Source of the DNA: Trypanosoma brucei
Lineage: Eukaryota
Direction of reading: 5' to 3'
Length of the DNA: 64,000 nucleotides
Assembly (NCBI GenBank): GCA_000002445.1
Contig: CP000071.1
Span: 1,440,001-1,504,000 of the forward strand
Positions 7,613-39,125 of the stretch are shown here, one piece after another (position 1 is the stretch's first letter; each line of letters starts with the position of its first letter). A program made the translations under genes and the position numbers. A model generated the notes under the pieces. The model had not been told where the DNA came from. It was given only the letters and a program-made list of their open reading frames with translations, and made no database searches.

Positions 7613-7652
<40 letters not shown>
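7613..7652. repeat. (TG)n dinucleotide microsatellite, about 20 units, inside the strand-switch region
   Basis: Direct read: tgtgtg... uninterrupted. The ORF 7614-8264, which starts MCVCVCV, is an artefact of this repeat. Confidence 0.95.
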
Positions 7653-7653
<1 letters not shown>

Positions 7654-15438: not shown

Positions 15439-15684
15439 TAGAATTACAATGAACCAGTGGTATAAAACCTAATAAAAATGACGTAGTGTTAGGGTTACGT
15501 ACGGATGTGAATGCTGGTCGTTAGGTTGCAGGATTCCTCATTTCCTTTGCCAAATGGTGCCTCTAACACCTTCTATTCTTTACTTTTGTTATTTCCCTTT
15601 GTAGTTGTAGGAATTTTGACGTTCTTCAATCAACGCGTTTCTTCGACTTTCCTCCCCAAGTGAACACGATTGCTCGTATTGAAA

Positions 15685-16029
15685 ATGCCCGCCAGACCCA
15701 ATGAAGAACAGTATACTCCGGAGATGTTGCAGCTTCGCGTGAAGCAAGGACTCCAAAAGCGCAAGAAGTGCGCTCTTTGTCTGCATGTGTTTCATGTCAA
15801 CGAACTGCCTGGAGCTATCACTCACAAATCTATACTGGAACTTCGGAAAAAATGGGGGTTAGACGTAAGGCGCGGTGACCGCATGCCTCCCCCCTCGCAG
15901 TTGTACAAAAGAGAGGAGTTGTGCGTCTTTTGCATGCAGTTCTTCGGTACGAGTGGTAGCACACAATCTCAGCAACAACTTCTGGCTTCCACACGTGGAG
16001 GAATGCCGGCTCGTTTAACCCTCCGTTAG
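15685..16029 (+). CDS. Small hypothetical protein (~114 aa) with paired CxxC motifs (CALC ... CVFC), possible zinc ribbon
   Basis: Track ORF 15670-16029 begins with TTG. The first in-frame ATG is at 15685 (atgcccgccagaccc = MPARP). Two CxxC pairs sit about 60 aa apart. Assignment as a real gene rests mainly on same-strand position within the cluster. Confidence 0.4.
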   Translation: MPARPNEEQYTPEMLQLRVKQGLQKRKKCALCLHVFHVNELPGAITHKSILELRKKWGLDVRRGDRMPPPSQLYKREELCVFCMQFFGTSGSTQSQQQLLASTRGGMPARLTLR

Positions 16030-17054
16030 AGATGAAAGGGATACCCAATCTTTTTGCGTTTCTTCCTTTTTTGTAGCTCAACCAACAGCATATATAGTAT
16101 GTACAAATATTTGCTTGTGGGATGACTTGGATCCCTTCTACACGGGCGTGTATCGTGTCTATGTATCTACCTTCCCCCCTTTTGCTCTACTTAACTTTGA
16201 CATGTCAATGTTACATTCCCTTCTACTCTTTTTGTTCCTGGTGGTGGCCTTGCTGCTCATAGACCCAAAGGACAACTTCAAAATGACTTCAGGCCGGAGG
16301 ATACCACGGAAATTGCCACCTTATGGATCTGATGGTCAGTTGTGGCGGACGAGTTGGTGAGAATGCATTTCGTTTGTGGTGCGACATTGTTTTTATGAAA
16401 GTTGTTCGGAACTTCCTGTAGGCGCGAGTGTGCCTGCATGTGGCGTTGCGAAGCGTAAGATGTGAAGATGCAACCACGTAGCGTGAGCTGCGAGTGGTTT
16501 GACGTTCTGGGTATCAGTTGTTGGTAAGTGGACATGGGGGGGGGCATTCCTTCCCTAGCTCCCCATCAGCGTCCGTCCGGGGACGTTGGGCGTTAGTTTA
16601 TACAAGCCGCAAAGTTGGTGCCTTTGCCATGTTTCCCTCGGTCATGTGGACAGTGTGTGAGTTGGCTGTTAGTTGGCAATAGGGTTGACATCGGTTGATA
16701 TGCAGATGCTACGGAAGGTGCCGAACGTCCTTTGAAACCCTGAGTTTTTGCGTTATACACGAAACTCCCTTGTTGGGCGCTCTTTTCTTTTTTGCTTTCT
16801 TACGACCTTGCTGACTTCGACTGGCGTTTGGCGGGAGAGGATGGGCACCTTCTGTTCGGGCATGTACCGGGTAATATCAGGCTTTTCCGCAGAACAAAAA
16901 AAACTCTGGGGCGATGTTGAAAGATTTTTGTAAGTGTCATGTTAATTGGCTTCACTATACCTTTACTCTTGTTGTGCTGTTTCCCTTCCTTGCCACCAAC
17001 ATTCGCACGAATGGAAAAAATTAAGTGGAAAAATCTGTGCTCAAAGGTTGAGCA

Positions 17055-18620
17055 ATGTTCCAACTGACCTTGCGCCACCATAGCAAACGCACGCCCGGTT
17101 ATGTGTTTTGGCGGCAGAGTACTCTGGTTGAACTTGAACATGCTAGGCGGAATTATCTGTTGTCAGAGCGGCCCCTTCCAATCGCTGACGTTGCGCGTCG
17201 GATGGTGCGTGTGAAGTCACGATATCTGGACACGAAAGACTTCAACGAGAAGAGCCTACTGCGGGGCGAGTACAAGTACTTTTCCGGGAAATCTTGTGAC
17301 ATCCGGCATGCACGACCCGAAGACCTGGTTGCTTATGTTGAATGTGGCTCTTTCTTCGGTTTTTGGGACGCGGCTCAAATGAATCGCATCCTTCAAGAGC
17401 TGTTGCTGAAGCTTGATGAGCTGGGTGCTGCGGAACTCTTTCACCTCTTTACTTCGCTTCCATCACTGCGAAAGCAGACGGGCGAGTTGCATTTCTGCGT
17501 GGCCCGCCGTCTTGTCGATGAAATATCGAATCTCACAGTAGATGAGTGTATCCACGTTTGTGCGGCATGCGATCAGGCAACGCCGCGCGAGCTTGTGCGG
17601 GGCTTGGTCCAAATGATTGGACCGATGGTTTCTAACCGTGCACTTAGCGCAGCGCAGTGTGTTGAGATAATGGACACACTTGGCGCTTGTTGCCTTCCGG
17701 GGGAGAACCGTGAGTTTGATCTGTTTTTTAAGGATACAAAAGAAGTTGTGGTTTTGGGGATGACTACTTTGGGCGTGATGGACATCGCTGTTGCCTGCAC
17801 CTCAATGAGGCTCCTTGGTATTTTGGATGCCATCACAGAGAAGGAGGCAGTTCGTTTGTTTACGTCTCGCTTGAATGAGACATGTGCGAGTTCGATGGCT
17901 ATGATGTTCTCGGCTGTTGGGAGCGATTTTATCTTCTGCCAAGCTGTTGGGGAGAGAGTCGTTTACCTAGCCACAGACTTCACACCAAGCGAAATGCTTA
18001 GCATTTTTGCAGTGTACTTGACCAACATCGTTTCACTCTGCCCGGCGTCTAGTGGAGGAGTCGCCATCGGTGACAGTGCATGTGAGATGCCGCAGGAGGA
18101 GTGGACCGCGGGTCGCGGTGTTGGCGAGCGACATTTTGCTCATCAGCGTCGAAATGACCTCCTCAATGTGATTAGGGAGTTGATGGACCAGACATTGTCG
18201 TTACTCGAGTCGGCTTCAGCCTACGTGTCACCAGTTTCTCAGCTCCAGTTCGTGGCGGTGTTCCACCGTGCTGTTGAAAATCTCTGTGGTGATGTGGAGC
18301 AGCTTTTGAATTTTCTTCCTTCTCTGAACCGTTGCATGCAGCTGCTTTCCGCAAAACTGATTGCATCCCTCACGCAGTACACATATTCTGAACTGATTGT
18401 GCTGCTGCAAATGTGCAATCCACTAGGCAGACTGCTGACAAACGCCGCGGTTGGAGCAGTCGTACATGAACTCCTCCGGCGGGAGGTCGGTGCTTCTGGG
18501 GGCGAAGCCATGTCAATCTACGCAACTCTTCGGCAGCTCACGGGGTTGCGAGCCGAGTATCGTGTCCGAATTGAAAGGGACCTCCTGCCAAGGTTGCTTG
18601 CCCGGTGCTCGCACACTTAA
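17055..18620 (+). CDS. Conserved hypothetical protein, 521 aa
   Basis: ATG verified at 17055 (atgttccaactgacc = MFQLT). Leucine-rich alpha-helical composition and a possible N-terminal organellar presequence (MFQLTLRHHSKRTPG). No confident domain call. Confidence 0.6.
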   Translation: MFQLTLRHHSKRTPGYVFWRQSTLVELEHARRNYLLSERPLPIADVARRMVRVKSRYLDTKDFNEKSLLRGEYKYFSGKSCDIRHARPEDLVAYVECGSFFGFWDAAQMNRILQELLLKLDELGAAELFHLFTSLPSLRKQTGELHFCVARRLVDEISNLTVDECIHVCAACDQATPRELVRGLVQMIGPMVSNRALSAAQCVEIMDTLGACCLPGENREFDLFFKDTKEVVVLGMTTLGVMDIAVACTSMRLLGILDAITEKEAVRLFTSRLNETCASSMAMMFSAVGSDFIFCQAVGERVVYLATDFTPSEMLSIFAVYLTNIVSLCPASSGGVAIGDSACEMPQEEWTAGRGVGERHFAHQRRNDLLNVIRELMDQTLSLLESASAYVSPVSQLQFVAVFHRAVENLCGDVEQLLNFLPSLNRCMQLLSAKLIASLTQYTYSELIVLLQMCNPLGRLLTNAAVGAVVHELLRREVGASGGEAMSIYATLRQLTGLRAEYRVRIERDLLPRLLARCSHT

Positions 18621-19001
18621 TGGAATTCGTGCGTCATGTCGTTGTGCCCTTCGACAGGCGCATACCACTCGTTTACGTCTAATGGCTGCATACTTGCTAG
18701 GCAATGCATGTGCATGCGTGCAAGGAGAACCTCCCTCTCGTTTTGCCGCCTCTGTGCCAATATTACAGTGTCCTTCTCTCCCCCATCTTGCTCATCGTTT
18801 TGCGTATGGTCGCTTGTCGGCGGGTTGCGGTGGCTCAATTTGTCGGTCATGCCACATACTTGTAGGGGAAGGCCGTTACGTGCCGATACATAAGCGATTT
18901 TTTTTTTTTTTGCGTGGTGAAGTGGTGCAACCCCACTGGTTCACGCGTTGTTTACCTCCGATAGGGGCTGTCACCTACGCGTAGGTTAATATATCGTGGG
19001 C

Positions 19002-19919
19002 ATGTTTCAGAGGGCTAGATTTCTCCTTTTACCAATAGATGATGTCTTGCCTGCCGGTAGTCGTTGGTCGCGTGTGACAGCACTGCCAACGTCGCATGCT
19101 CACCCTTCCGGTGCGTCTCGGGCTTCCCGTACAGGGCCGGTCACAGCCAATACCACCTCAGCGCTACCGCCAACGCCTTACATAACCTTCATACCCACCC
19201 TTCACGTGGCATCGGTGAAATTTTATGACGCCGTTCTTGATTACATGAGGGAATCCGTCGAAAAGAACAGTAATGTCGTCGTCCTATTGGAAGGTATCTG
19301 CGATAACAAGGAGGGAAGAATACAGCAGATGGACGAATACATGCAAATTTCACGGAGTGAGGAGTTACGTGCCGCCATGCTTGAGAAGGCTGAGAAAAAC
19401 ACACTGTACAATGACGAAACTATTCGTACAATTTGTGATGAGCTGGCTGTCAACTACGATGTTCTGAGCAGAGAGTTGGAAACAGTTCGTCTGCAGGAAT
19501 GCTACCTCCGCCCGAAAATGGCTGCCCTTATGGGGAAGAATCTTTGCAACGAAGCCGACATCGACATGGAGGAAGTTGAAGCCCTGATGTTGGAAGGGGA
19601 TAACAATGATCATAGTGGAAGCTATGGCGCTTGCGGCAGCGGGTCTGTCGTACCAATCACTAGCATCGGTTCCCATCCCGCGGTGCGCCGAAGTCGTGAG
19701 ATGAAAGTTGCGCGCAAAGCGCGTGCAACCTGTGTTGATTGGTTGAAGCATGGCGTGGCCGGTGAGGTAATTCTTCCCTGGGGAATATACCATGTTGAAG
19801 GCATACAGCGTAACGTGCTGTCGTTGAATGCGCAGGACGAGGGAATTGTATTCGTTGAGAGTGGTAACGATATTCGCCATGTGCCGTTTGGCATTCACAG
19901 AGATCTTTTGGTTTTGTGA
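19002..19919 (+). CDS. Hypothetical protein with candidate TraB/PrgY-family domain
   Basis: Track ORF starts with GTG at 18996. The first ATG is at 19002 (MFQRARFLL). An N-terminal block IPTLHVASVKFYDAVLDYMRE..VVVLLEG resembles the TraB GTAHVS..V..VVVELC motif. A C-terminal block ILPWGIYHVEGIQRNV resembles the TraB GxGHVxGIxxN motif. The family call is from memory of motifs only. Confidence 0.5.
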   Translation: MFQRARFLLLPIDDVLPAGSRWSRVTALPTSHAHPSGASRASRTGPVTANTTSALPPTPYITFIPTLHVASVKFYDAVLDYMRESVEKNSNVVVLLEGICDNKEGRIQQMDEYMQISRSEELRAAMLEKAEKNTLYNDETIRTICDELAVNYDVLSRELETVRLQECYLRPKMAALMGKNLCNEADIDMEEVEALMLEGDNNDHSGSYGACGSGSVVPITSIGSHPAVRRSREMKVARKARATCVDWLKHGVAGEVILPWGIYHVEGIQRNVLSLNAQDEGIVFVESGNDIRHVPFGIHRDLLVL

Positions 19920-20550
19920 GTGAAATATCTCTTTAAACCCTGCGTTCCTTCGACTCTCTTGCACCCCGTTTTCTGAAGTTTCAAAAGTTCATGTTTTTCA
20001 GCCTTATTAACGTGTTGCCGCAGGCTACGATGCATTATAGCAGACGGGCACAGTGCCGTATTTGTCGTTCCACATATGAGGTGGGGTGACGCGATCAAGT
20101 TTCCATCTACCTTTCCCAAGGGGAGTTTCTACTTGGCGGGCTGGTGGTCCGCCGGTTGCCTACCATTTTGTTGGTTCTGACATTATTTGGCATTGCTGTT
20201 TTATCTACTTTTTTTTTCACTTGTTGCTTTCCCCATGCTCCTTTCTACCTCTTTATATATGTGTGTCTACGTGTCCTCTGTGAACACGTGTCGCATACTT
20301 CGCTTGCTCATATGGTTGTAAGGGAATACTTATTTGGAGAGTCGCATCCCTCTACACGGACTTCGGGATCTGGTGACTCTGCCCGTCTTCTGGGGTTATT
20401 CAGTTCATTCCTTCGTCCCCGTAGGCACTTTGGACGGAAAAACAAGCCTTTCCCCCTTCTAAGGTTGTATTCCACCCTTCACATCGTCGTGTACATAAGG
20501 CGCGTCTTTGAGGGCTCCGCTCGCGTGCTTGCCCCTTTTCTTAACGGTTG

Positions 20551-22203
20551 ATGGGATCCTGCTGCGGAGCGAACGCGATGCCAGTGGTGGATAATAGTGA
20601 GAACTCTAAACCCCAACGGAAGCGCAATGTTACGTTTTCAACGTTTCCCGCCCTCGATATTGAAGTTCACCGACCCGGGGGGGATGCGGACAGTATGCTC
20701 AGTCTAACCCGCAGAAGCAGTACTTTTCCAATGGATCAGACCATGTACACTGTTAGTGAGTTCAACGCCACCTTAGCAGACACTGTGCGCAGTTTAAATC
20801 TAACTCCCCGGGATGATGTTGGTCGAAGCCTGGTGACGAACGGTCTGGATGAGGTTAGTGAGCGAGACGTTGACAGCTTCGTAGATGACGTTCTTCATAT
20901 AGGTCTGTTAGATTCACTTGTTACGGTTGAGGAGCGCGTCGGCAACGGTTACGGCCTTGGCAGCAGGTGCCTATCTCCCTCTGGGGGACTCGGAGGACCT
21001 GTGTGGCTTTCGAAGGAGCAGTTGCAGTACTTAGAGAGAGCTCCGGACACTTCAGAGCGACTTGCTCGTCTAGCAGAGCTTGAAGAAATGTCGCGCCAAG
21101 AGATTTTTGCGGCGTGGTTGATGAATTCTACCCTCCTGAAGATGGGGGCGGCACGGGTTATACCAACAATCCGGCGTTGCCGAGCGGCGAATGAGAAGGC
21201 GTCTAAGAATAGAGATGTCATCGTTATCCACGCCAAAGACATTAACGTGCGTGCTAACGACGATCCAGGCCTAGAGAGAAACTGGAACTCGCCCCGATTT
21301 GAGGCTCTTGGCCACACTGGCTCCTTTTCGCCTCCTGATGAGTCCGGTGTGGATGAACCGTCACCCGAAGTAACGGAGCATTACCAGATATTGGCGTTGA
21401 CGGGACGCGCCGTCAACGTAAAGAACAAGGTTCGTTCGCACATCGTATCGGATACGTGGGATTTCCTGTCGAGATGCGAAGCCTCCGAGGTTCTTAACAA
21501 GGGCGATGTGTTTTTTAGGTTCGTCTGTAGTCCGATTACGAACTTAAGTGAAGATAGTCTCAAAATTATCGACACCTTGATAAACCTGTCCAGCTTCAGA
21601 GATGAGTTGGGGGAGAACAACGTGCCAAGAGTAGATGTCTATTCTAATGAAGAGCAACGGAAATACGTCTCTATTTTGGTGAAAACGATGAATTTGTTAC
21701 CAGGTGTGTCTATTTCCAGCATAACACCCGAACTTGTTGCAAGCCTTGACTATCAGCGTAGCTGTCAGCCTGGTGAAAATAAGTTTGAACCGAGCGATGA
21801 CCCACACACTTTTAGGCAGGTCAAGACCTTGATTAGGTTTATATATAGTATAACCATTCAAATGAAGGTAAGCGAAATAACAGATTCCAACGTGCTCCTT
21901 AATCTCAAGGAGATTGATGGCATGGTTCCCGCCAAAGCGTTGATGCTGGAGCGAACAAAAAAAAACATAATGTCATCCGACTCCACGGTGAAGGTTCGTT
22001 CTTTTCTGCTGTATTATCCTGTGAATGAGGGCGTGCTCGTTAATAACCAAACCATTGTTATAAACAAGTCTCTCCCTCGTGTCGCTTCGAAGCTTCTCCA
22101 GACGTTTGGTTCCCAAGGCGCCTCGGATGCAGTGAAAACGGCTGTGCAAACACGAAATTACTTCTTTAATCGCTTCGGGGATGGCAGGACGGGGGGAATT
22201 TGA
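20551..22203 (+). CDS. Hypothetical protein, 550 aa, with N-terminal MGSCCG (predicted N-myristoylation plus S-palmitoylation signal)
   Basis: Track ORF starts with TTG at 20548. ATG at 20551 gives MGSCCGANAMP. Gly2 with Cys4/Cys5 matches the dual-acylation pattern of trypanosome flagellar-membrane proteins such as calflagins. Confidence 0.65.
   Translation: MGSCCGANAMPVVDNSENSKPQRKRNVTFSTFPALDIEVHRPGGDADSMLSLTRRSSTFPMDQTMYTVSEFNATLADTVRSLNLTPRDDVGRSLVTNGLDEVSERDVDSFVDDVLHIGLLDSLVTVEERVGNGYGLGSRCLSPSGGLGGPVWLSKEQLQYLERAPDTSERLARLAELEEMSRQEIFAAWLMNSTLLKMGAARVIPTIRRCRAANEKASKNRDVIVIHAKDINVRANDDPGLERNWNSPRFEALGHTGSFSPPDESGVDEPSPEVTEHYQILALTGRAVNVKNKVRSHIVSDTWDFLSRCEASEVLNKGDVFFRFVCSPITNLSEDSLKIIDTLINLSSFRDELGENNVPRVDVYSNEEQRKYVSILVKTMNLLPGVSISSITPELVASLDYQRSCQPGENKFEPSDDPHTFRQVKTLIRFIYSITIQMKVSEITDSNVLLNLKEIDGMVPAKALMLERTKKNIMSSDSTVKVRSFLLYYPVNEGVLVNNQTIVINKSLPRVASKLLQTFGSQGASDAVKTAVQTRNYFFNRFGDGRTGGI

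Positions 22204-22595: not shown

Positions 22596-22606
<11 letters not shown>

Positions 22607-22640
<34 letters not shown>
22607..22640. repeat. (CA)n dinucleotide microsatellite in intergenic region
   Basis: Direct read: cacacaca... about 17 units. Confidence 0.9.
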
Positions 22641-22643
<3 letters not shown>

Positions 22644-23532: not shown

Positions 23533-26500
23533 ATGGAGTACAAGCGATGCAACTCAAGCCGCACGACGGCGAGCATCAGTCGATCTCCTCAGCTACGCAC
23601 ATCTGCCACGTCAACACCAGTGCGCAGCGCGACACCAATGCGTACCCCTACATCGGCACGGAGTGGTGCTTCGAGCGCGCGCCGTACCTTGACGGGTACA
23701 GGTACAGGGAGCGGAGCATTGAGAAGCGTAGGCTTGGATGGCGCCTCCCCGAGGGCGAAAGGACCTGGTTTACCACGACCCATTGCCTATAAACGTAGCG
23801 GGACAGCTACCAGCGGCGGTCAAGTGGACAGCGGCAACGATATGAGCATGGTTAGCAGCAGGAGTGCAATCGGCGACAGCCCCAAAGGAAAGCGCGGGGC
23901 GCACAAGCCCGCAGTGGCAAAAACCGGCGGAAACGGACGTGTCAACGTCTATGCTCGAGTGCGTGCCTTCTCTCCAGCTGAAACAGCGGATAATCAGCAT
24001 TCGGCGGTGCATCTGAGTGACAACAAGGTGGAGGTTGTTGTGTCCCCCAAGAGCGTTTACACTTTCATGCTTGACGGGTGCTTTTCGAGCACTGGTTCCC
24101 CGTCGGATGAGGGCTTCGCATCACAGAGCAGTGTTTTCGATGCCATTGGCCGGCCACTGGCTGAGAACGCTCTAGCAGGTTACAACGCCGCAATTATGGT
24201 TTACGGACAAACTGGAAGCGGCAAGACGTACACGATGTTCGGCCCTCCAAAATCGTTGGGGACGGAGGAGCAGGGCCTTGTGCCACGAGTGTGTAATATG
24301 ATCTTTGAGCGGGCTGATGCTTGCTTGCAGAAGGGCATCACATGCCGTGTGTGCGTGTCTATGCTTGAAGTGTATCTGGAAGACGTGTTTGATCTGTTCA
24401 GCAACCGCAAACAAGTGACAGTGCGGAAGGACTATTTGGACAATTCCTTTCATGTTGTTGGGGCTAAGTCCATCCCTGTGAGGCAGTATAAGGATGTTGA
24501 AGAACTGTTGCAAAGGGCGGAGGCACTTCGAACATTTGCTGCGACCGCCATTCACGCTCGCTCCTCTCGTGCGCACGCACTGTTTCAACTAGAGTTGTAC
24601 ACTACCTTCGAGTCGACAGACATCGCGCCTCGTACGGCTAAGATTCTTCTGGCCGACCTTGCTGGGTGCGAGCGTATTAAACTTGCCCAAACAGAGACAG
24701 GCATTCCCTTTGAGGAGGCTCGGAACATCAATCTTTCGCTACTTTCATTGGGTTCGTGCATTGAGGCTGTTACCATGCGTAAGGGATCAAGTCAAAACAT
24801 TCCTGAGTTCCGTAATAGTACTCTCACTAAGTTGTTGAAGGAATACTTGGGTGGAAACAGCGTGTCTTCTATCGTTGTAACCGTTGGACCCAGCGTGCGC
24901 GATGCTCGTCTCAGCGTGCAATCGCTTCGATTCGCTGACCGTGCCATGAAGGTCGTGACTCATGCTAAGATAAACACAGTGAAACCCATTACCGAGCTTG
25001 ATGATGCAGATGGTTCCGAAGACAAGGTGCGTGAGGCTTATAACAAAAAGAAAGAGGCATTACAGGTCGAGTTTCAGGTGCAGAGCGAGTTGCAGAAGCT
25101 GCAGAATAAGATCACAATTTTGGAGTGTCAGCTAATGAACTCTGTGGATGACGAAGTTGTCGCTCGACTCCAGGAGGAAATATCTACCTATCAGAAGTCG
25201 CTTGCTGATGCTGACTTAGAGCTGCAGCAGCAGCGTCGTGTATTGTATGACAGTGAGGTGATGCTAGAGGAGCAACTAAAGGAACTGAACACGAGGATGC
25301 AAGAAATGATAGAGGAAAACGAAGAGGCAACAGAAAACCTCTTGGCCGAATGTCGAAAAAAACACACGGAGCGGCTTGAGGTAGAACAAAAGCGGCACGA
25401 AGAGGAGGTGGATGTCCTTTTAAAGAGTCACGAATTCGAATTGGAGAGAATCAACCAGCTTCTTCAAGATTCTGACACGAAATGTGCCGAACTCACGACC
25501 ACCTTGTTCAAAACTAAAGAGGATCTTCGCAAAACAGACGGTCTGGTAGATGAAATGCAGATGGCACTTGAAGAGCTTGGGGACGCATCAAAGGCAACCG
25601 AGACTGAGCTTTACGGCTATGTCGAGCAGCTTCGCAGTGAAAACAGTCGATTAAGCACCGCAATAGACACTCTCCGCCAACAGTTGAAAGAATCTGAAGC
25701 ATCCGTTGAAGATCGTGACAATCGTCTAAAGGAACATGAGGAATCATTGGATACCCTCCGCCAACAGTTGAAAGAATCTGAAGCATCCGTTGAAGATCGT
25801 GACAATCGTCTAAAGGAACATGAGGAATCATTGAATACCCTCCGCCAACAGTTGAAAGAATCTGAAGCATCCGTTGAAGATCGTGACAATCGTCTAAAGG
25901 AACATGAGACATCATTGGATACCCTCCGCCAACAGTTGAAAGAATCTGAAGCATCCGTTGAAGATCGTGACAATCGTCTAAAGGAACATGAGGAATCATT
26001 GAATACCCTCCGCCAACAGTTGAAAGAATCTGAAGCATCCGTTGAAGATCGTGACAATCGTCTAAAGGAACATGAGACATCATTGGATACCCTCCGCCAA
26101 CAGTTGAAAGAATCTGAAGCATCCGTTGAAGATCGTGACAATCGTCTAAAGGAACATGAGACATCATTGAATACCCTCCGCCAACAGTTGAAAGAATCTG
26201 AAGCATCCGTTGAAGATCGTGACAATCGTCTAAAGGAACATGAGGAATCATTGAATACCCTCCGCCAACAGTTGAAAGAATCTGAAGCATCCGTTGAAAA
26301 TCGTGACAATCGTCTAAAGGAACATGAGGAATCATTGAATACCCTCCGCCAACAGTTGAAAGAATCTGAAGCATCCGTTGAAGATCGTGACAATCGTCTA
26401 AAGGAACATGAGGAATCATTGAATACCCTCCGCCAACAGTTGAAAGAATCTGAAGCATCCGTTGAAGATCGTGACAATCGTCTAAAGGAACATGAGGAAT

Positions 26501-27903
26501 CATTGAATACCCTCCGCCAACAGTTGAAAGAATCTGAAGCATCCGTTGAAGATCGTGACAATCGTCTAAAGGAACATGAGGAATCATTGAATACCCTCCG
26601 CCAACAGTTGAAAGAATCTGAAGCATCCGTTGAAGATCGTGACAATCGTCTAAAGGAACATGAGACATCATTGAATACCCTCCGCCAACAGTTGAAAGAA
26701 TCTGAAGCATCCGTTGAAGATCGTGACAATCGTCTAAAGGAACATGAGACATCATTGGATACCCTCCGCCAACAGTTGAAAGAATCTGAAGCATCCGTTG
26801 AAGATCGTGACAATCGTCTAAAGGAACATGAGGAATCATTGGATACCCTCCGCCAACAGTTGAAAGAATCTGAAGCATCCGTTGAAGATCGTGACAATCG
26901 TCTAAAGGAACATGAGGAATCATTGAATACCCTCCGCCAACAGTTGAAAGAATCTGAAGCATCCGTTGAAGATCGTGACAATCGTCTAAAGGAACATGAG
27001 GAATCATTGGATACCCTCCGCCAACAGTTGAAAGAATCTGAAGCATCCGTTGAAGATCGTGACAATCGTCTAAAGGAACATGAGACATCATTGGATACCC
27101 TCCGCCAACAGTTGAAAGAATCTGAAGCATCCGTTGAAGATCGTGACAATCGTCTAAAGGAACATGAGGAATCATTGAATACCCTCCGCCAACAGTTGAA
27201 AGAATCTGAAGCATCCGTTGAAGATCGTGACAATCGTCTAAAGGAACATGAGACATCATTGGATACCCTCCGCCAACAGTTGAAAGAATCTGAGACAACA
27301 GTGGTGGTTTTGACCGCTGACTTGAAGCAACTGGAGGAGGAAATGTTTATTGACCAAGCGGACCTGAAAGAAAGAATCGCTTTTCTCGAGGTTGAGTTGA
27401 AAAGGTGCGAAGAAAAGGGGGCTTATTATAGTGCACTGGTTGATGAAATGCAAGCGGAGTTGCATTGCGCCAATGAACGGGTTGCTGCAATGTCTGACCA
27501 AGTTCAAAATATGGAAGTGCGAGTTTTTGATGTGTGTGGATATATGTTTGAGGCTTTTAGCGTGAAATGCCAAGATACTGTTTCTGCTTTTGCTTCCTTT
27601 ACCAAAGGTGTCACGGAGGACCTTACCAAAGGTACCACTGAGCGACTTAGGCTTTTGGCTGAGGTGGTTGAATTACGGTCGTCCACAGTCGCAAGGAAGG
27701 CGGCAACCCAAAGACGTGCGTCTGCGGTTTCGTCTTTAGTACAGTCTGCGCAGGAAATTCTCTCAAAAATCGCGGACGAGGTTGAGGACGCCGATAATTT
27801 TTCCGATCGATCAGCTGTGGTGGCTTCATTTGTAAATTCTCCAAAGGAATCCTGGGGTGCGGACTTATCTCCTCGCTTTACTGAGGAGTCTCTGACCTGC
27901 TAG
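23533..27903 (+). CDS. Kinesin-like protein, 1456 aa. N-terminal S/T/R-rich extension, motor domain, then a long charged repeat stalk
   Basis: ATG verified at 23533. Motor motifs present: P-loop GQTGSGKTYTMFG, switch I ARSSRAH, switch II LADLAGCER. The stalk holds about 19.5 copies of a 28-aa unit (TLRQQLKESEASVEDRDNRLKEHE[E/T]SL[D/N]). This may correspond to an orphan kinesin described in T. brucei, but I cannot confirm its identity from the sequence alone. Confidence 0.85.
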   Translation: MEYKRCNSSRTTASISRSPQLRTSATSTPVRSATPMRTPTSARSGASSARRTLTGTGTGSGALRSVGLDGASPRAKGPGLPRPIAYKRSGTATSGGQVDSGNDMSMVSSRSAIGDSPKGKRGAHKPAVAKTGGNGRVNVYARVRAFSPAETADNQHSAVHLSDNKVEVVVSPKSVYTFMLDGCFSSTGSPSDEGFASQSSVFDAIGRPLAENALAGYNAAIMVYGQTGSGKTYTMFGPPKSLGTEEQGLVPRVCNMIFERADACLQKGITCRVCVSMLEVYLEDVFDLFSNRKQVTVRKDYLDNSFHVVGAKSIPVRQYKDVEELLQRAEALRTFAATAIHARSSRAHALFQLELYTTFESTDIAPRTAKILLADLAGCERIKLAQTETGIPFEEARNINLSLLSLGSCIEAVTMRKGSSQNIPEFRNSTLTKLLKEYLGGNSVSSIVVTVGPSVRDARLSVQSLRFADRAMKVVTHAKINTVKPITELDDADGSEDKVREAYNKKKEALQVEFQVQSELQKLQNKITILECQLMNSVDDEVVARLQEEISTYQKSLADADLELQQQRRVLYDSEVMLEEQLKELNTRMQEMIEENEEATENLLAECRKKHTERLEVEQKRHEEEVDVLLKSHEFELERINQLLQDSDTKCAELTTTLFKTKEDLRKTDGLVDEMQMALEELGDASKATETELYGYVEQLRSENSRLSTAIDTLRQQLKESEASVEDRDNRLKEHEESLDTLRQQLKESEASVEDRDNRLKEHEESLNTLRQQLKESEASVEDRDNRLKEHETSLDTLRQQLKESEASVEDRDNRLKEHEESLNTLRQQLKESEASVEDRDNRLKEHETSLDTLRQQLKESEASVEDRDNRLKEHETSLNTLRQQLKESEASVEDRDNRLKEHEESLNTLRQQLKESEASVENRDNRLKEHEESLNTLRQQLKESEASVEDRDNRLKEHEESLNTLRQQLKESEASVEDRDNRLKEHEESLNTLRQQLKESEASVEDRDNRLKEHEESLNTLRQQLKESEASVEDRDNRLKEHETSLNTLRQQLKESEASVEDRDNRLKEHETSLDTLRQQLKESEASVEDRDNRLKEHEESLDTLRQQLKESEASVEDRDNRLKEHEESLNTLRQQLKESEASVEDRDNRLKEHEESLDTLRQQLKESEASVEDRDNRLKEHETSLDTLRQQLKESEASVEDRDNRLKEHEESLNTLRQQLKESEASVEDRDNRLKEHETSLDTLRQQLKESETTVVVLTADLKQLEEEMFIDQADLKERIAFLEVELKRCEEKGAYYSALVDEMQAELHCANERVAAMSDQVQNMEVRVFDVCGYMFEAFSVKCQDTVSAFASFTKGVTEDLTKGTTERLRLLAEVVELRSSTVARKAATQRRASAVSSLVQSAQEILSKIADEVEDADNFSDRSAVVASFVNSPKESWGADLSPRFTEESLTC
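25664..27290 (+). repeat. About 19.5 tandem copies of an 84-bp coding repeat inside the kinesin gene
   Basis: Measured period: cagttgaaag recurs at 25681 and 25765, giving 84 bp = 28 codons. Units are near-identical at the nucleotide level. Two nucleotide variants alternate (gaa/aca = E/T; gat/aat = D/N), plus one gaa-gat to gaa-aat change (ED to EN) in unit 8. The minus-strand ORFs 25514-27298 and 25617-27233 are artefacts of this periodicity. Confidence 0.95.
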
Positions 27904-30222: not shown

Positions 30223-33200
30223 ATGCTGCGGCATACGACGTCCATATTTGCCCCTACGTGTCGAACCGTCGTTTGCCGGACTTACAACCACCCGGTAGCG
30301 AGTAGGAGAAAGACCGGCAACAGACAAAAGAAGGGCGTTTGCGACAATGTTCGTGACATAATCGGCATGACCATCCCCGAGGCGCGGCTGCGTCGCGACC
30401 GTATTTCAGCAGCTTCCTTCGACCGTTGCATTGAGGAAAATGCTCGAAATATCATTGGCCTTGGCTCTAAAGAATCTCCTGGACTCGAGACCCGCTTCGG
30501 TGCTCGGTATGATCGTAGGGATGTGCGTTTTGTTGGTCGGGCCGATGACGTCCGGCGATTCACCGAGGAGGCGGCGAGGTCAAGCGCCGCCGGACATTGG
30601 CCAATGGGAGTGACATTCGTGCGGGGTGAGTTCGGTGCTGCATCCGGGGGCGATGGCCATCGGTTGAGCGCTGAACCAACGAGCCATGATTTGGGCCGCG
30701 CACCAATGGATGTGGCTAGCGAGGGAACTAATCCAATGCTGCGGCGTGTGTTGAGGCGGTGCAAAGAAGGGGTTTCCTCGTCACTGGCTGGAGTTCTTGC
30801 CGCTGCTGGCCCTGAGAAAGCACCGGCTGAAGGAACCACCTCTGAGATGAACCCTAGGAAGAACGTGGCACCGTCGACGGCTTCTACACGCCCACAAACG
30901 GCATCAGTAGTGAGTCCTGCGAGGCGGCGTGTCGAGAAGCGCTTACGGCGGCGATCAGCCGTGTTGTTGAGAGGCGGAGAATCGTTACACCCATGTTCCC
31001 TGCAGGGCGGATGCGGCTCACAGGGTGGCTCTTCGAACTGCGCGTTTGTTACACATCCATCTACCGCTTGCGTTCAGTGGTTGCGGCTGGGCCGTTGCGA
31101 GGAAGCGCGTCTATGTAGCTGCCCGTGGTGGCACCCTGCGGAGATGGAGGTACTGAAACCGGAGTTTCTTCACAGTTACTTCTTCGGCATTGCCGAAGGA
31201 GATGAGAGGGGGCTACGACCCTTGAGGGAAAGCTGTGCTGCGGTGGGGAGGCTCCTACAGATGTTTCTGGACATTATCGTTTCCACGATATTCGAAGCAT
31301 TGAGGATGGAGACGACAAATAACGAGGAGGTGGTGACGGTTGGGCGCGTTGAGGACCTTCTATCTCGTGCTGGTAAAGGGAAGGGTGGAAACTCCGCCTG
31401 CATTTGTAACCTAAAGGATGGTTTGCTCTCTGTGGAGCGGGAACTGTGCGTAAGTGCACTAATGGGTGATGATGAGGGGGTAACCTGCACGGAAAGTGCT
31501 GACGGCGAGACATCGGGGCCTCATTTCGATGGCGAGTCGACTTCTTTGCTCCGCAACATGGAACACTACCATAAGCTGCACGCCGATGCGGACAAAGAAG
31601 TGCGAAACCTCCTTGTTATATTTCGCGCGTACTTTACGATGTGTGATGAACGTGGGGGAAACAGTGGCCGCGTCATCGTGAGCGCTTCTCTTACTCAATG
31701 GCTGCTCAGGCACGCTGCGAGTTGTTGCAGTCAGGGAGAATGTTACTCGGCTGGACTGACCCCAATCAAGCTGTTTGAGGAGGCTTCAGTTGTATTATTG
31801 AAGGATAGACTTCATAGGTGTGGCATTGACATATGCGGCAGGAGTTGCAAGCAATCGAGCATCACACCTTCCGACCGTTCATCGCCGTTATTGTTGCTGC
31901 AACATGTCTCTTTATTGTCGAATATTGTAACGTTTGGTGCGAACGCAGATCAGGCGATGCTGACCGAGCCGGGGCAACAATCACTTTTGTATAGTGTCTT
32001 GCTTTGCCTTCAATCAGGTGGGGTGTCCTGTTGGCTTGGTGACTCTCCGCAGCAGCAGTACGTTAGTTGTTGGTTATTCATGCAATCTTTACTCTCGGTG
32101 GCTTCGGTATGCCTACTGCGGTTGGGCAGTCGAATCTTCTCGTTTGCACGCCCCGTGCTTGTGGAAGTCGGGCGGCGTTTGGCAAAGGATATTGAGGTCC
32201 AGTTCGAGGCGAAGTTGCTGCGGGCATCCGGATGGGCTCCGTGGACTGATGCACAGATGTTCGGTGAACAGCACCGGGCCATTTACACTGCGTCCGACTA
32301 CGCCCGGACGCACATGCCTGTCGTTGCTCGCGCATTCACAGCAGCAATGCTCAACATACTATTACTGAACACATTGAGAGCAGCGAACCGCGAGGTGAAT
32401 TTGTGTCGCAGTCCCGTTGCTGCCGTTATTTTCAGCGGGGAAAAGGCTGAGGAATACAAGGGCTGTGCAGTAAAAGGTGGATTAGACTCACCTATGGAGT
32501 GTGTTCAGCGCGAGTCGCAATTACGCGGTGGGCCCAGCGTGCGGCGCAGTATGCGTCCCTATGCACAAGAGGCCATGTCATTAATAGCTCTTTTGCATGA
32601 TGAAGGTACCCAAATGCTTGCTCGACGGCAGGCGCTCATGGAAGAGTTCTTGTGCAGGCGGAAAGATTTCGATGACTGTGGAGCAAACGAGCTCAACAAC
32701 CCCCAAAACCGAAGAAGAAGCTCCGGGGGCGTTATCTTGCCATCATTCCACGACGAAAAGATTCATGTTTTTGAGAAATTACTTCCACACGGGTCCATCT
32801 CCGTTTGTGGTGACGGTGTCGGATTGCTTCTTCGCGTGCTACTGGAGGGCGGGTCTGCATACGGGGCGTTGCGCCTCGCCGCATCTGCGGTTCACGTAGG
32901 AAGAGCGCTAAGGTTTGCGGCGCGCCAGCCCATGCCACACGTTCATCTAGGCGAAAAGGTAAAGCACAAACACATGCGAAACAGTAGAACAGGTCGCAAG
33001 TACACTGTTCGTGTCCGTGTCCCTGTTCTTCGTAGCACTGATCCCGACATGGAATGCCGAATGCACCGAAAGGGACAAAGTGGAGGAGCGCACCCCATTG
33101 CATTGTATTTGCGGCTCAACCAGCAAACAGTGGAAGAGATGGTCCGCCTCGCACTTCGCATGGGGGGCGCTGGAGAGCGTCTACTGAGCGGCGTAGTTGA

Positions 33201-34602
33201 CGACTGCGTACGGGGTTTACTCCTGGATTACGGGAAGTCACGCTGTTTACCTGCGGTAAAAGGCTCGGATGTGCACGATGATGGGGCGATTGCAGGAGAT
33301 TTAGGCGCACGCGAGCTGCAGGGAATCTTGTCCGTTGTAGTGGGTACCAACAGTAATTCGCAGCTTTTGTCCGTGGCTGATGAAGCCCAGCAGCGCGCCG
33401 TGGAGGGTTACCGTGTCCCTCCAACAGCATTGTTGGTCGAGCTCCTTGTGGCCCTTACACCTCAAGCGGGGCGCGGGGTGCACGAGCGGTGCACACGTTT
33501 ATGCGCAATGGACCCTCATCTAGTAAGCGAAAGAACACTCCTGGCGAAGCAGTGCCACACGGCAGGCGAAAGTTTTGCTAGGGCAAATGACGATGCTTCC
33601 GCGGCATGGTTGAGTTACCTCAACTCAGGAGTTGCTGTCGATTCAGGGGCGGTTAGTGTTTCGTTTCTCCGAAAGGAGGCTGAGCGACTACCTGTGGTTG
33701 ATAGTGTTGCTGCGTCGTTGAACAGGCCCCCGCTTCCTCGCAACGTAGAGGAGCTAAGAAGACAGCTCACGCAAACGGTTGATGCCGTCGGTTGTGCTCA
33801 GGACAGGCGACAAAACGAGGCAGCGTGGAGTTTGTCACGGGGGTTTGCCGTACGCGTGCAAGACCCAAACTCAATGCATGGAGTTTGGTGGGCTGTGATG
33901 TGTGGAGCAATTCTTGGTGCAAGCGACGACGCGCTGGCCGGCAAACAACGACCATGGGCACGGTTGCTTCTGCGCAACGCCTTCCACGTGGCCCAACAGT
34001 TCGCAGCACCACAGGATCGCGCCCGCTACGGCCAGGCAACGGTAAGGGCATTTATTCTCTCCGGCATATTTGAATTGACATCGACACCCCGTAGCCCTAC
34101 CGATGTTAGTTGTCGAAGGAAACACCTACCGTGGCAGCTCCCTGTAGTTCACGACCTCAACCTCTTTTTAGCTGCCCAGGTGCACCTCGCACAGCGGCTA
34201 CACAAACTGTATCCCAACAGTGTGATCACGAATGATTGTGGTATTAACAAACAACTGCAACTTTTTGGTCATCTAAAATTGTCGACAAAACTTGAAGACC
34301 ACCACATTGAGGCGACTGCGTGTTGGAGTCTACTTGAACCATTAACTGAACACAGCGAGTTAGCGATAACATGGCTGCAGGAATCACTGTTTCATACTCC
34401 TCAAGGACTGCTCGCATGGATCATCGCCTGCACTAACAACAATTGCAACCAAACGGCTTTTGTGATGGCCGCATGGGTGACACTTTTATGCCGCACTGAA
34501 AAGGTAGGTGGGACATTCAATAAACATGTCCAACAACATCTACGGTCCAAATGCACAAAAAAACAAGTGGAACAACTTCTGTTGCTTGATCACTGCAATT
34601 AA
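30223..34602 (+). CDS. Conserved hypothetical protein, 1459 aa
   Basis: ATG verified at 30223 (ttatgctgcgg = MLR). Long uninterrupted ORF in cluster orientation with no recognisable domain. An alternative downstream start, MTIPEARL (about aa 49), cannot be excluded. Confidence 0.6.
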   Translation: MLRHTTSIFAPTCRTVVCRTYNHPVASRRKTGNRQKKGVCDNVRDIIGMTIPEARLRRDRISAASFDRCIEENARNIIGLGSKESPGLETRFGARYDRRDVRFVGRADDVRRFTEEAARSSAAGHWPMGVTFVRGEFGAASGGDGHRLSAEPTSHDLGRAPMDVASEGTNPMLRRVLRRCKEGVSSSLAGVLAAAGPEKAPAEGTTSEMNPRKNVAPSTASTRPQTASVVSPARRRVEKRLRRRSAVLLRGGESLHPCSLQGGCGSQGGSSNCAFVTHPSTACVQWLRLGRCEEARLCSCPWWHPAEMEVLKPEFLHSYFFGIAEGDERGLRPLRESCAAVGRLLQMFLDIIVSTIFEALRMETTNNEEVVTVGRVEDLLSRAGKGKGGNSACICNLKDGLLSVERELCVSALMGDDEGVTCTESADGETSGPHFDGESTSLLRNMEHYHKLHADADKEVRNLLVIFRAYFTMCDERGGNSGRVIVSASLTQWLLRHAASCCSQGECYSAGLTPIKLFEEASVVLLKDRLHRCGIDICGRSCKQSSITPSDRSSPLLLLQHVSLLSNIVTFGANADQAMLTEPGQQSLLYSVLLCLQSGGVSCWLGDSPQQQYVSCWLFMQSLLSVASVCLLRLGSRIFSFARPVLVEVGRRLAKDIEVQFEAKLLRASGWAPWTDAQMFGEQHRAIYTASDYARTHMPVVARAFTAAMLNILLLNTLRAANREVNLCRSPVAAVIFSGEKAEEYKGCAVKGGLDSPMECVQRESQLRGGPSVRRSMRPYAQEAMSLIALLHDEGTQMLARRQALMEEFLCRRKDFDDCGANELNNPQNRRRSSGGVILPSFHDEKIHVFEKLLPHGSISVCGDGVGLLLRVLLEGGSAYGALRLAASAVHVGRALRFAARQPMPHVHLGEKVKHKHMRNSRTGRKYTVRVRVPVLRSTDPDMECRMHRKGQSGGAHPIALYLRLNQQTVEEMVRLALRMGGAGERLLSGVVDDCVRGLLLDYGKSRCLPAVKGSDVHDDGAIAGDLGARELQGILSVVVGTNSNSQLLSVADEAQQRAVEGYRVPPTALLVELLVALTPQAGRGVHERCTRLCAMDPHLVSERTLLAKQCHTAGESFARANDDASAAWLSYLNSGVAVDSGAVSVSFLRKEAERLPVVDSVAASLNRPPLPRNVEELRRQLTQTVDAVGCAQDRRQNEAAWSLSRGFAVRVQDPNSMHGVWWAVMCGAILGASDDALAGKQRPWARLLLRNAFHVAQQFAAPQDRARYGQATVRAFILSGIFELTSTPRSPTDVSCRRKHLPWQLPVVHDLNLFLAAQVHLAQRLHKLYPNSVITNDCGINKQLQLFGHLKLSTKLEDHHIEATACWSLLEPLTEHSELAITWLQESLFHTPQGLLAWIIACTNNNCNQTAFVMAAWVTLLCRTEKVGGTFNKHVQQHLRSKCTKKQVEQLLLLDHCN

Positions 34603-34817: not shown

Positions 34818-36620
34818 ATGAGCGGAAAGGAAGTTGAAGGTGTTGTGAGTCCTGCGGACCAGCAGCAGCCAGCCGTCCCGGAGGTAACAGATATCACGCT
34901 GGAGGCCGCCCGCAAGCAGAAAATTCACAACCTGAAGTTGAAGACCGCCTGCCTTTCGAATGAGGAATATGTCCAGGACCTGCACGTATCCGAGTGGAGT
35001 GAGACGCAGAAGCAGAAGCTGCAGGCTGCACACGAGAAAGCGCATGAATTGCTTGCCTCAGTGGAGGGTGGGACGAAGTGGAGCCTGACAGAGGCGTATG
35101 ACATCAAGAAGCTGATGCGCGTCTGTGGTCTTGAGATGTCTGTGCGTGAACTGTACAAGCCGGAGGACAAGCCACAGTTCATGGAGATTGTTGCACTCAA
35201 GAAGACAATGAACGAACTGAAGCAACATCACAACAAGACTCGCACGGTGTCTTTCACCGGCATGATCGACAATGCCATCGCCAAACTGGAGAAAATCGAA
35301 GACGAACTGCGCCGGTCCCAGCTCGACGCTTCTGAGATGGCGCAAGTTCCTGTGGCTGCACTGAAGAATATTGAGGACACGATGAACGTGGCTGTTGTGC
35401 AGACGGCTCTTCTTGGGAACGAGGAGCAGATCAAAGCCCAACTTGCAGCCGTTGAGAAGGCGAACGAAATCCGTAATGTTGCCATTGCCGATGGTGAGAT
35501 GGCGATTGCTGAGGAACAGTATTACATTAAGGCGCAGCTGTTGGAGCACCTTGTGGAGCTTGTGGCCGACAAGTTTCGCATCATTGGGCAAACTGAGGAT
35601 GAGAATAAGAGCTTCAGTAAGATCCACGAGGTACAGAAGAAGTCATTTCAGGAATCTGCCTCAATCAAGGACGCGAAGCGCCGCCTTAAGCAACACTGCG
35701 AGGACGACCTACGTAACCTTCACGATGCCATCCAGAAAGCTGACTTGGAGGACGCCGAAGCCATGAAACGGTTCGCCACGCAGAAGGAGAAGTCGGAGCG
35801 GTTCATCCACGAGAACCTCGACAAACAGGACGAGGCATGGCGTCGCATTCAGGAACTGGAGCGCGTGTTGCAGCGCCTTGGGACGGAGCGTTTTGAAGAG
35901 GTGAAGCGCCGTATTGAGGAGAACGACCGCGAGGAGAAGCGTAAGGTGGAGTACCAACAGTTCCTCGATGTATGTGGCCAGCATAAAAAGCTGCTGGAAC
36001 TGTCTGTGTACAACTGCGACCTTGCGCTTCGCTGCATGGGTATGCTGGAGGAGATCGTAGCCGAGGGCTGCAGTGCCGTCAAGTCACGCCATGACAAGAC
36101 GAACGATGAGTTGTCTGACCTTCGGCTGCAGGTGCACCAGGAGTACCTGGAGGCATTCCGTCGCCTGTACAAAACTCTTGGCCAGCTTGTGTACAAGAAA
36201 GAAAAGCGCCTGGAGGAGATTGATCGCAACATCCGCACCACACACATTCAACTGGAGTTTGCCATTGAGACCTTTGACCCCAACGCGAAACTACACTCCG
36301 ACAAGAAGAAAGACCTATACAAACTTCGTGCGCAGGTGGAGGAAGAGTTGGAGATGCTGAAGGACAAGATGGCGCAGGCGTTGGAGATGTTTGGACCTAC
36401 TGAGGATGCGCTGAACCAGGCTGGTATCGATTTTGTTCACCCTGCTGAGGAGGTTGAGTCCGGCAACATGGATCGCCGCAGCAAGATGGTGGAGTACCGT
36501 GCACACCTGGCGAAGCAGGAGGAGGTGAAGATTGCCGCGGAGCGCGAGGAGCTGAAACGATCTAAGATGCTCCAGAGCCAGCAGTACCGCGGCCGCACGA
36601 TGCCGCAGATCACTCAGTAG
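34818..36620 (+). CDS. PFR2: Paraflagellar rod protein 2 (PFR2/PFR-A), copy 1
   Basis: The 600-aa product MSGKEVEGVVSPADQQQPAVPEV...QYRGRTMPQITQ is recognisable as the T. brucei 69-kDa major paraflagellar rod protein. ATG verified. Confidence 0.95.
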   Translation: MSGKEVEGVVSPADQQQPAVPEVTDITLEAARKQKIHNLKLKTACLSNEEYVQDLHVSEWSETQKQKLQAAHEKAHELLASVEGGTKWSLTEAYDIKKLMRVCGLEMSVRELYKPEDKPQFMEIVALKKTMNELKQHHNKTRTVSFTGMIDNAIAKLEKIEDELRRSQLDASEMAQVPVAALKNIEDTMNVAVVQTALLGNEEQIKAQLAAVEKANEIRNVAIADGEMAIAEEQYYIKAQLLEHLVELVADKFRIIGQTEDENKSFSKIHEVQKKSFQESASIKDAKRRLKQHCEDDLRNLHDAIQKADLEDAEAMKRFATQKEKSERFIHENLDKQDEAWRRIQELERVLQRLGTERFEEVKRRIEENDREEKRKVEYQQFLDVCGQHKKLLELSVYNCDLALRCMGMLEEIVAEGCSAVKSRHDKTNDELSDLRLQVHQEYLEAFRRLYKTLGQLVYKKEKRLEEIDRNIRTTHIQLEFAIETFDPNAKLHSDKKKDLYKLRAQVEEELEMLKDKMAQALEMFGPTEDALNQAGIDFVHPAEEVESGNMDRRSKMVEYRAHLAKQEEVKIAAEREELKRSKMLQSQQYRGRTMPQITQ

Positions 36621-36860
36621 CGCTGCGCTTAAATGTCTTTCATTATAATCAATGTATAACCTTTATGTAGTATTTCAATCTATGCCGCTGTGTACGTGCA
36701 CTGCGGTGCCTATCCTTCGGCATTAGAGAGTCACTGTTTGTGTAGATCGTAGCTGCATGTCTGACATCTGGTTCATTAGTGCCGTTTTGAGTCTGCACTG
36801 TTGTGCAACTTGATATGCATCACTGCACACCAACCGTGTGTTTCCTCCTTTGGGTGCACC

Positions 36861-36907
36861 CTTTAATCCTTGTCTTCTCCTTTTTTGTCTCTTTCCCCCT
36901 CGAAAAG
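36861..36907 (+). promoter_or_regulatory. Polypyrimidine tract plus AG dinucleotide: candidate trans-splicing acceptor region for the downstream PFR2 copy, repeated in every spacer at +2154n
   Basis: The tract ctttaatccttgtcttctccttttttgtctctttccccctc is followed by aaaag, about 65 nt upstream of the ATG. From established kinetoplastid mRNA processing, a polyY tract directs spliced-leader addition at a downstream AG and polyadenylation of the upstream mRNA. The exact acceptor AG is not determinable from sequence. Confidence 0.5.
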
Positions 36908-36971
36908 GTGTCAAACTACTGCCGCATAAACTACGGTTATCCCAAATTTAAGAGAAAGCAATAAAGCATCA

Positions 36972-38774: not shown

Positions 38775-39125
38775 CGCTGCGCTTAAGTGTCTTTCATTAT
38801 AATCAATGTATAACCTTTATGTAGTATTTCAATCTATGCCGCTGTGTACGTGCACTGCGGTGCCTATCCTTCGGCATTAGAGAGTCACTGTTTGTGTAGA
38901 TCGTAGCTGCATGTCTGACATCTGGTTCATTAGTGCCGTTTTGAGTCTGCACTGTTGTGCAACTTGATATGCATCACTGCACACCAACCGTGTGTTTCCT
39001 CCTTTGGGTGCACCCTTTAATCCTTGTCTTCTCCTTTTTTGTCTCTTTCCCCCTCGAAAAGGTGTCAAACTACTGCCGCATAAACTACGGTTATCCCAAA
39101 TTTAAGAGAAAGCAATAAAGCATCA

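Follow-up and report, generated by a model that had tools for sequence, protein, structure and literature searches.

KLIF is an orphan kinesin of Trypanosoma brucei, in which it bundles and sorts microtubules at the cleavage furrow as this ingresses. It is essential to completing trypanosome cytokinesis, a process that takes place without actomyosin. Behind its motor domain lies a stretch of about 800 aa predicted to be coiled coil, and the second half of this stalk has already been published as amino-acid repeats, which were left out of the constructs to simplify the biophysics (bioRxiv 10.1101/2021.11.04.467292). Here we describe these repeats as they occur in a 64,000-nt stretch of T. brucei DNA (GenBank assembly GCA_000002445.1, contig CP000071.1, positions 1,440,001 to 1,504,000 of the forward strand), referred to below as the window. 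All coordinates are positions in the window, and KLIF residue numbers are those of the product of the open reading frame (ORF) at 23533-27903.

Two published studies bear on the function of the stalk. KLIF 1-672, made without the repeats, forms parallel dimers that crosslink and slide microtubules, and aa 1-672 is the only segment for which experiments have demonstrated dimerisation; this construct includes part of the proximal stalk (bioRxiv 10.1101/2021.11.04.467292). The other study assigned 'two putative tropomyosin (TPM) domains' to KLIF, found the protein inside the cell, concentrated at the new-daughter tip and the furrow, and identified many proximal cytoskeletal partners by BioID (PMC9117871). 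In procyclic cells depleted of KLIF by RNA interference against its 3′ untranslated region, growth was rescued by ectopic KLIF without the C-terminal TPM domains, but not by a motor-dead mutant (PMC9117871). Neither a 28-aa, four-heptad unit nor its variants, differences between strains or a comparison across species are given in the published accounts of KLIF.

The ORF product matches exactly the T. brucei brucei TREU927 protein XP_847325.1/Q57UV7, encoded on chromosome 8. Residues A145, H341, A347 and C379 of KLIF have been named as unusual (bioRxiv 10.1101/2021.11.04.467292), and all four are found at their published positions in the window protein. The exact match, these four residues and the paraflagellar-rod genes downstream together identify the window gene as KLIF, Tb927.8.4950. 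A first reading of the window, made from its letters without database searches and called here the sequence-only reading, had described the repeat as the stalk of a kinesin. This was correct, since Pfam recognises a motor domain at aa 142-474 and the protein sequence is that of T. brucei KLIF.

Organisation of the 84-bp repeat

The repeat array was parsed in two ways, with Tandem Repeats Finder (TRF) on the DNA and by an in-frame split of the protein into 28-aa units. TRF returned a single array at 25672-27293 with a period of 84 bp, 19.3 copies, 98% matches and no indels. The in-frame split gave 19 full units followed by a partial unit of 10 codons, all in frame and spaced by exactly 28 aa, and the array makes up more than a third of the KLIF protein. 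The sequence-only reading had placed the array at 25664-27290, within 5 nt of the parsed boundaries, and had described its units as nearly identical, as the 98% matches confirm.

The consensus unit is TLRQQLKESEASVEDRDNRLKEHE(E/T)SL(D/N). Across the 1596 nt of the 19 full units only four nucleotide columns vary, and they fall in three codons (25, 28 and 15). Codon 25 is GAA or ACA and codon 28 is GAT or AAT, while the change of codon 15 from GAT to AAT is confined to unit 8, the VENRD unit. Unit 1 opens with ACT instead of ACC (codon 1). Named by residues 25 and 28, the units run in the order ED EN TD EN TD TN EN EN EN EN EN TN TD ED EN ED TD EN TD, with N28 in 11 of the 19. The sequence-only reading had reported two variable codons, consecutive EN types in units 7-11 and one unit with D changed to N (the VENRD unit), and each of these was seen here.

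That reading had also held that the four unit types are interleaved non-randomly along the array. For the order of the units, permutation tests gave P=0.85 (identical neighbours), P=0.12 (longest EN run) and P=0.06 (seven consecutive N28 units). Fisher's test for association of E25 with N28 and of T25 with D28 gave P=0.07. None of these tests, whose power is low with 19 units, was significant, and non-random ordering was rejected for want of statistical support.

Charged residues account for 46% of the array (about 50% of each unit), and its 532 aa carry a net charge of -57. When six repeat units on their own were searched against a protein database, there was no match at E<=1e-5; this result is uninformative, with composition filtering as the probable cause.

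Heptad pattern and predicted fold

A unit of 28 residues is equivalent to four heptads, as had been proposed, and both the in-frame parse and the pattern of hydrophobic residues bear this out. All four 'a' positions of the unit are hydrophobic (L6, V13, L20 and L27). One of the four 'd' positions, three residues later, is hydrophobic (L2, S9, R16 and H23), and the remaining phases are polar. Hydrophobic periodicity in the array peaks at exactly 3.5 and 7.0 residues. Strong hydrophobic residues make up 18% of the array and keep a strict 7-residue register, with L or V at every seventh residue without exception. Because 28 is 4 x 7, this register is unbroken over 542 residues. The variable residues lie on outward heptad positions (25 at f, 28 at b and 15 at c), a placement that, with three sites, is no more than suggestive of a coiled coil.

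The sequence-only reading had offered either a coiled coil or a single alpha helix (SAH), and the two differ in the density of their salt bridges. Opposite-charge pairs occur in the array at 0.09 per residue for i/i+4 and 0.12 for i/i+3, compared with 0.67-0.95 and about 0.7 respectively in idealised SAH sequences. This is the level of the GCN4 zipper, and 7-10 times below that of an idealised SAH. Same-charge pairs are about as frequent in the array as opposite-charge pairs. Of the two folds offered, the coiled coil is therefore favoured by the 7-residue hydrophobic stripe and the low i/i+4 density, and the SAH is disfavoured.

AlphaFold2 (AF2), run on aa 650-964 as a single-sequence monomer, predicted one uninterrupted helix with a mean predicted local distance difference test score (pLDDT) of 85, and the unit contains neither Pro nor Gly. 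The prediction is thus one of helix and not of disorder, the outcome that the sequence-only reading had named as contrary to its own view. At 0.1485 nm per residue the helical array would be 80.5 nm long, in agreement with the earlier estimate of about 80 nm, and the whole rod with its flanking helices would measure about 140 nm.

The only PDB sequence matches of the array were tropomyosin coiled coils, at E ~1e-5. In Pfam scans the array matched about 35 coiled-coil families, among them Tropomyosin (PF00261) at 75-78 bits, above the Pfam cut-off. As a control, the unit was shuffled either within its heptad phases or without regard to phase, and each permuted unit was repeated 19 times and scanned against Pfam. 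Phase-preserving shuffles still matched about 30 coiled-coil families, with PF00261 at 19-40 bits (maximum 39.7) and TMF_DNA_bd at 74.7 bits, whereas plain shuffles matched none of those coiled-coil families. What lies behind the 'tropomyosin' label is thus the heptad pattern, which also gives the array its coiled-coil character, and the label is no evidence of homology. A specific PF00261 domain was rejected, the match being a generic coiled-coil one.

The PF00261 stretches of KLIF fall within the 28-aa array. For this reason we infer that the 'TPM domains' deleted in the published rescue experiment are the array. Published experiments then indicate that the array is dispensable for dimerisation, for microtubule crosslinking and for growth in procyclic culture. 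From its heptad pattern, a two-stranded parallel coiled coil that continues the dimeric proximal stalk is the favoured structure for the array. Overall, the KLIF stalk probably consists, in its distal half, of a strongly acidic coiled-coil rod that acts as a length-tolerant spacer.

Differences between strains

Within Trypanozoon we compared the TREU927 array with those in the assemblies of T. b. gambiense DAL972 and T. b. equiperdum IVM-t1. DAL972 has 17 full units (17.3 copies) in the order ED, nine TD, two KD, TD, ED, ED, TD, ED, and IVM-t1 has 16 full units (16.3 copies by TRF); N28 is found in neither. Length polymorphism, predicted from the near-identity of the units, is thus seen among the three assemblies. 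Across the three, a single unit departs from the 84-bp spacing.

In the two KD units of DAL972, the adjacent units 11 and 12 (retrieved stretch 5173-5340), codon 25 is AAA (Lys). As AAA is one step from both GAA and ACA, it explains the 'toggle' between E and T, which differs at two nucleotides. DAL972 also carries a synonymous AAG variant in three adjacent units. Coding sequence flanking the array differs between TREU927 and DAL972 at about 1% of positions (14/1332 and 5/609). Despite this low divergence of the flanks, strain-private variants fill many units. The pattern supports unequal exchange or gene conversion since the strains diverged, giving an array that is both homogenised and length-polymorphic.

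Several of the gene models at this locus are broken. The DAL972 model is a fragment adjoining a gap of 100 N (retrieved stretch 2900-2999), a T. equiperdum OVI contig stops inside the last repeat unit (retrieved stretch 1-30), and in IVM-t1 single-base indels split KLIF into ORFs of 524 aa and 519 aa (retrieved stretch 6001-9560). A T. brucei pangenome preprint contained nothing on the KLIF locus.

Repeats in orthologous kinesins

With the non-repeat half of KLIF as query, clear orthologues were found throughout the kinetoplastids. The switch-I His (H341 in KLIF) is present in all eight orthologues checked, from T. congolense through Bodo saltans. Most of the eight also have the RxRA motif that contains A145; T. 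vivax has RVRD, and there was no match in B. saltans.

In many orthologues a tandem array begins soon after the same conserved block of the stalk, and several others are truncated or have no clear array. The units differ in length: 60 aa in T. congolense, 53 aa in T. vivax, 46 aa in T. theileri and T. conorhini, 14 aa in Leishmania (of the LQETSAKLADTEET type) and Novymonas, 21 aa in Leptomonas seymouri, and 49 aa and 77/56/35 aa in Angomonas. T. cruzi has units of both 46 and 53 aa around aa 718-890, the extra seven residues being a duplicated GQIEQLE heptad. All of these lengths are 0 or 4 modulo 7, that is, whole heptads or whole heptads plus one four-residue stutter, and the arrays have hydrophobic harmonics at 3.5-3.54 residues. 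We estimate that such heptad-quantised lengths would arise by chance with a probability of about (2/7)^5, or about 0.002, under a uniform null and for about five lineages whose independence is debatable.

Similarity of the units themselves was judged against heptad-phase-preserving shuffles. The unit of T. brucei resembles that of T. congolense more closely than such shuffles do (z=4.7, 0/2000); its similarity to the units of T. vivax, T. cruzi, T. conorhini and L. tarentolae could not be told apart from a common heptad pattern. A shared (V/M)E(D/E)RDxR(L/I)xE motif, considered as a sign of unit homology across Trypanosoma, was rejected as unproven, as only T. congolense reached significance. 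The homologous 60-aa unit at the same place in T. congolense indicates that the array is at least as old as the split between T. brucei and T. congolense. The array had been called either young or continuously homogenised; homogenisation is therefore favoured and youth is not.

The lengths of T. cruzi entries run from 785 to 1233 aa, a spread suggestive of arrays that are collapsed or vary between haplotypes. In the L. infantum orthologue the C-terminal part of about 130 aa has a few LQETSAKLADTEET units and then a repetitive SPTPRRRCRRRPPS sequence. The latter resembles a translation of the repeat's own DNA in a different frame, and would then reflect a frameshift in the assembly or the gene model.

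Layout of the gene and its surroundings

The features of KLIF in the window are listed in Table 1. The N-terminal extension has been described as disordered, with many Pro, Ser, Thr and basic residues, and as a second microtubule-binding region (bioRxiv 10.1101/2021.11.04.467292).

Table 1. Features of the KLIF gene in the window.
Feature	Position (nt)	Strand	Basis
Complete coding sequence of KLIF (Tb927.8.4950), 1456 aa	23533..27903	+	ORF list; exact protein match
N-terminal extension, aa 1-126, P/S/T/G/basic-rich	23533..23910	+	composition; published function
Kinesin motor domain, aa 142-474	23956..24954	+	Pfam PF00225, E=5.3e-77
Proximal non-repetitive stalk, aa 475-712	24955..25668	+	conserved in Trypanosoma orthologues; AF2 helix aa 650-712
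Array core, 19 full 84-bp (28-aa) units, aa 713-1244	25669..27264	+	TRF; in-frame parse
Partial 20th unit TLRQQLKESE (10 codons)	27265..27294	+	unit identity stops at nt 27293
Distal non-repetitive segment, aa 1255-1424, one continuous predicted helix, conserved in orthologues	27295..27804	+	AF2
C-terminal ~32 residues, predicted disordered	27805..27900	+	pLDDT <50, model residues 171-203
Antisense ORF over array, 594 aa	25514..27298	-	reverse-complement repeat only
Antisense ORF over array, 538 aa	25617..27233	-	reverse-complement repeat only

The region downstream of the array (27295-27900, aa 1255-1456) has been published as a 'small globular tail'. AF2 was run on it as a monomer with a nine-sequence alignment of tails only, and predicted a helix of 170 residues followed by about 32 disordered residues. 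The helix spans model residues 2-171, mostly with pLDDT >90. No 'small globular tail' is evident in this monomer model, and the rod may simply run on to near the C-terminus.

Every large ORF across 12352-60545 lies on the + strand, with the exception of the two antisense ORFs over the array. These two are mechanical by-products of a stop-free repeat and not genes. Five of the large + strand ORFs flanking KLIF (1028, 521, 307, 551 and 1459 aa, at 12352-22203 and 30223-34602) had no Pfam match at E<=0.001. Upstream of KLIF there is a perfect intergenic (CA)21.5 microsatellite at 22599-22641. Five paraflagellar-rod genes of the PF05149 family, each of 600 aa, begin two genes downstream of KLIF and lie in tandem at 34818-45236 with a period of 2154 bp. 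Their coding sequences are 100% identical in nucleotide sequence, and the four 351-bp spacers between them occur in just two versions. From its layout this is probably the PFR2 locus of chromosome 8.

Discussion

The arrangement that we propose for the KLIF stalk is as follows. The 19 and a third units would form an uninterrupted acidic alpha-helical rod of about 80 nm, which would continue the parallel two-stranded coiled coil of the proximal stalk. Such a rod would hold the conserved distal helix and the short disordered C-terminus apart from the motor heads and from the N-terminal extension that binds microtubules. Unequal crossing-over or gene conversion would add, remove and overwrite units, leaving the frame and the register intact. 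Gain or loss of units is harmless to both, because 84 bp amounts to whole codons and whole heptads. Exchange of this kind would keep the units of each strain nearly identical, with copy number and private variants diverging between strains. Between species, unit length and unit sequence would turn over, the position of the array in the protein remaining constant. The array would on this model be a length-tolerant spacer or tether, and not a catalytic or essential interaction module.

Several points weigh against this arrangement. Polar or charged residues (S, R and H) occupy three of the four 'd' positions, a layer that would leave a two-stranded coiled coil made of the array weak and only marginally stable. 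A monomer run of AF2 cannot tell a coiled coil from a single helix. As to dispensability, it is we who infer that the published TPM deletion removed the array, and the rescue was by ectopic over-expression in procyclic culture only (PMC9117871). Other stages of the life cycle, or native levels of expression, could still reveal a function of the array. Finally, those kinetoplastid orthologues that have arrays keep them at the same position in the stalk, and this persistence speaks for selection on some property of a long distal rod. We regard as improbable the broader reading in which every KLIF orthologue has a long repetitive distal rod that is under selection and can be tuned rapidly. That reading would draw on the constant position of the array from Trypanosoma to Leishmania and Angomonas, and on unit lengths held to 0 or 4 modulo 7 despite turnover of the sequences. 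In that case the length of the rod or its periodic pattern of acidic charge would set the reach of KLIF or its lateral packing at the furrow, a role that would escape detection by over-expression rescue in procyclic culture.

Other explanations of the array can be weighed against the coiled-coil spacer. That it is an SAH domain, a monomeric stiff helix stabilised by salt bridges and serving as a spacer or lever, would suit a sequence of which about half is charged, which AF2 predicts as one unbroken helix and whose 'd' positions are mostly polar. The scarcity of opposite-charge pairs relative to idealised SAH sequences, the similar abundance of same-charge pairs, the net charge of -57 and the L or V at every seventh residue all speak against it, as does the parallel dimer formed through the proximal stalk, and we consider an SAH very unlikely. 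Multivalent docking or self-assembly seems to us the least likely of the explanations considered. In this case partners would dock unit by unit, or a charge period of 14 residues, which is indeed the strongest low-frequency charge harmonic of the unit, would zip dimers together side by side. The constant position of the array in orthologues and the many proximal partners found by BioID could be read in this way. Once heptad phase is controlled for, however, the unit sequence is conserved only between T. brucei and T. congolense, and strong net negative charge disfavours lateral packing. In addition, the repeat-free construct crosslinks and slides microtubules and truncated KLIF rescues growth (bioRxiv 10.1101/2021.11.04.467292; PMC9117871).

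The array might instead be maintained as, or matter chiefly as, an immunodominant B-cell repeat antigen like K39 of Leishmania. It is a tandem repeat in an intracellular cytoskeletal protein, which is one trait of K39-like antigens, and its setting in the stalk of a trypanosomatid kinesin is that of the 6.5 x 39-aa repeats of rK39; tandem-repeat cytoskeletal antigens such as GM6 also serve in the serology of African trypanosomes. Against this, the literature search found no report of antibodies to the KLIF repeat or of its peptide. Full-text searching for the peptide of the repeat and for a Leishmania tandem-repeat antigen identifier, LinJ16.1750, found nothing, and the Leishmania KLIF orthologue is therefore not put forward here as a known antigen. 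Fragments of a K39 22-mer were found in none of the 123 KLIF homologues retrieved, and KLIF is concentrated inside the cell at the new-daughter tip and furrow. Orthologues from Angomonas, Novymonas, Lotmaria and Leptomonas have arrays too, and if these trypanosomatids are restricted to insects, the immunity of vertebrate hosts would not account for the array's persistence in them. An antigenic role as the main reason for the array is, to our minds, highly doubtful. It is also unlikely, though worth allowing for, that the exact copy number and unit order are a construct of the assembly, be it through collapse, through expansion or through the mixing of two alleles into a mosaic. Assembly is difficult for an array of 1.6 kb in which only four columns are informative, and the gap in DAL972, the OVI contig end and the indels of IVM-t1 point the same way. 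Three independent assemblies nonetheless have the array at the same place and at similar sizes (19.3, 17.3 and 16.3 copies). The array is therefore real, and only its exact count is uncertain.

The repetitive stalk of KLIF was already known from the literature, and the array is a well-described, ordinary feature that leaves the understanding of features of its kind unchanged. What is added here is descriptive: the heptad logic of the unit, the correction of the 'tropomyosin domain' label, the differences between strains and the heptad-quantised unit lengths across species. Reading the array as a heptad-phased coiled-coil spacer, rather than as 'tropomyosin domains' or a single helix, corrects the literature annotation. 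It also provides a design rule, namely that truncations or length swaps should remove or exchange 28-aa units whole. Strains differ in the number of full units (19, 17 and 16) and have variants of their own, so that the array could serve as a typing marker; these differences also warn of gene models that break at this locus.

The array can be compared with three known systems. Tropomyosin and other long two-stranded rods likewise have unbroken heptads over hundreds of residues. The array is unlike tropomyosin in that three-quarters of its 'd' positions are polar, and the sequence match between them is no sign of homology. SAH domains, rich in E, K and R, are likewise long, highly charged and predicted to be an unbroken helix, and are possible spacers; their dense i/i+4 network of E with K or R and their balanced charge are absent from the array, which has a hydrophobic seam instead. 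The K39 repeat of Leishmania (LcKin) is likewise a tandem, charged, helical repeat of a kinesin stalk that is polymorphic between strains. It belongs to a different kinesin, however, its 39-aa unit is not a multiple of seven, and it has no peptide in common with KLIF. Seroreactivity is proven for K39, whereas the KLIF repeat, known here from its sequence alone, is likened to it by its setting.

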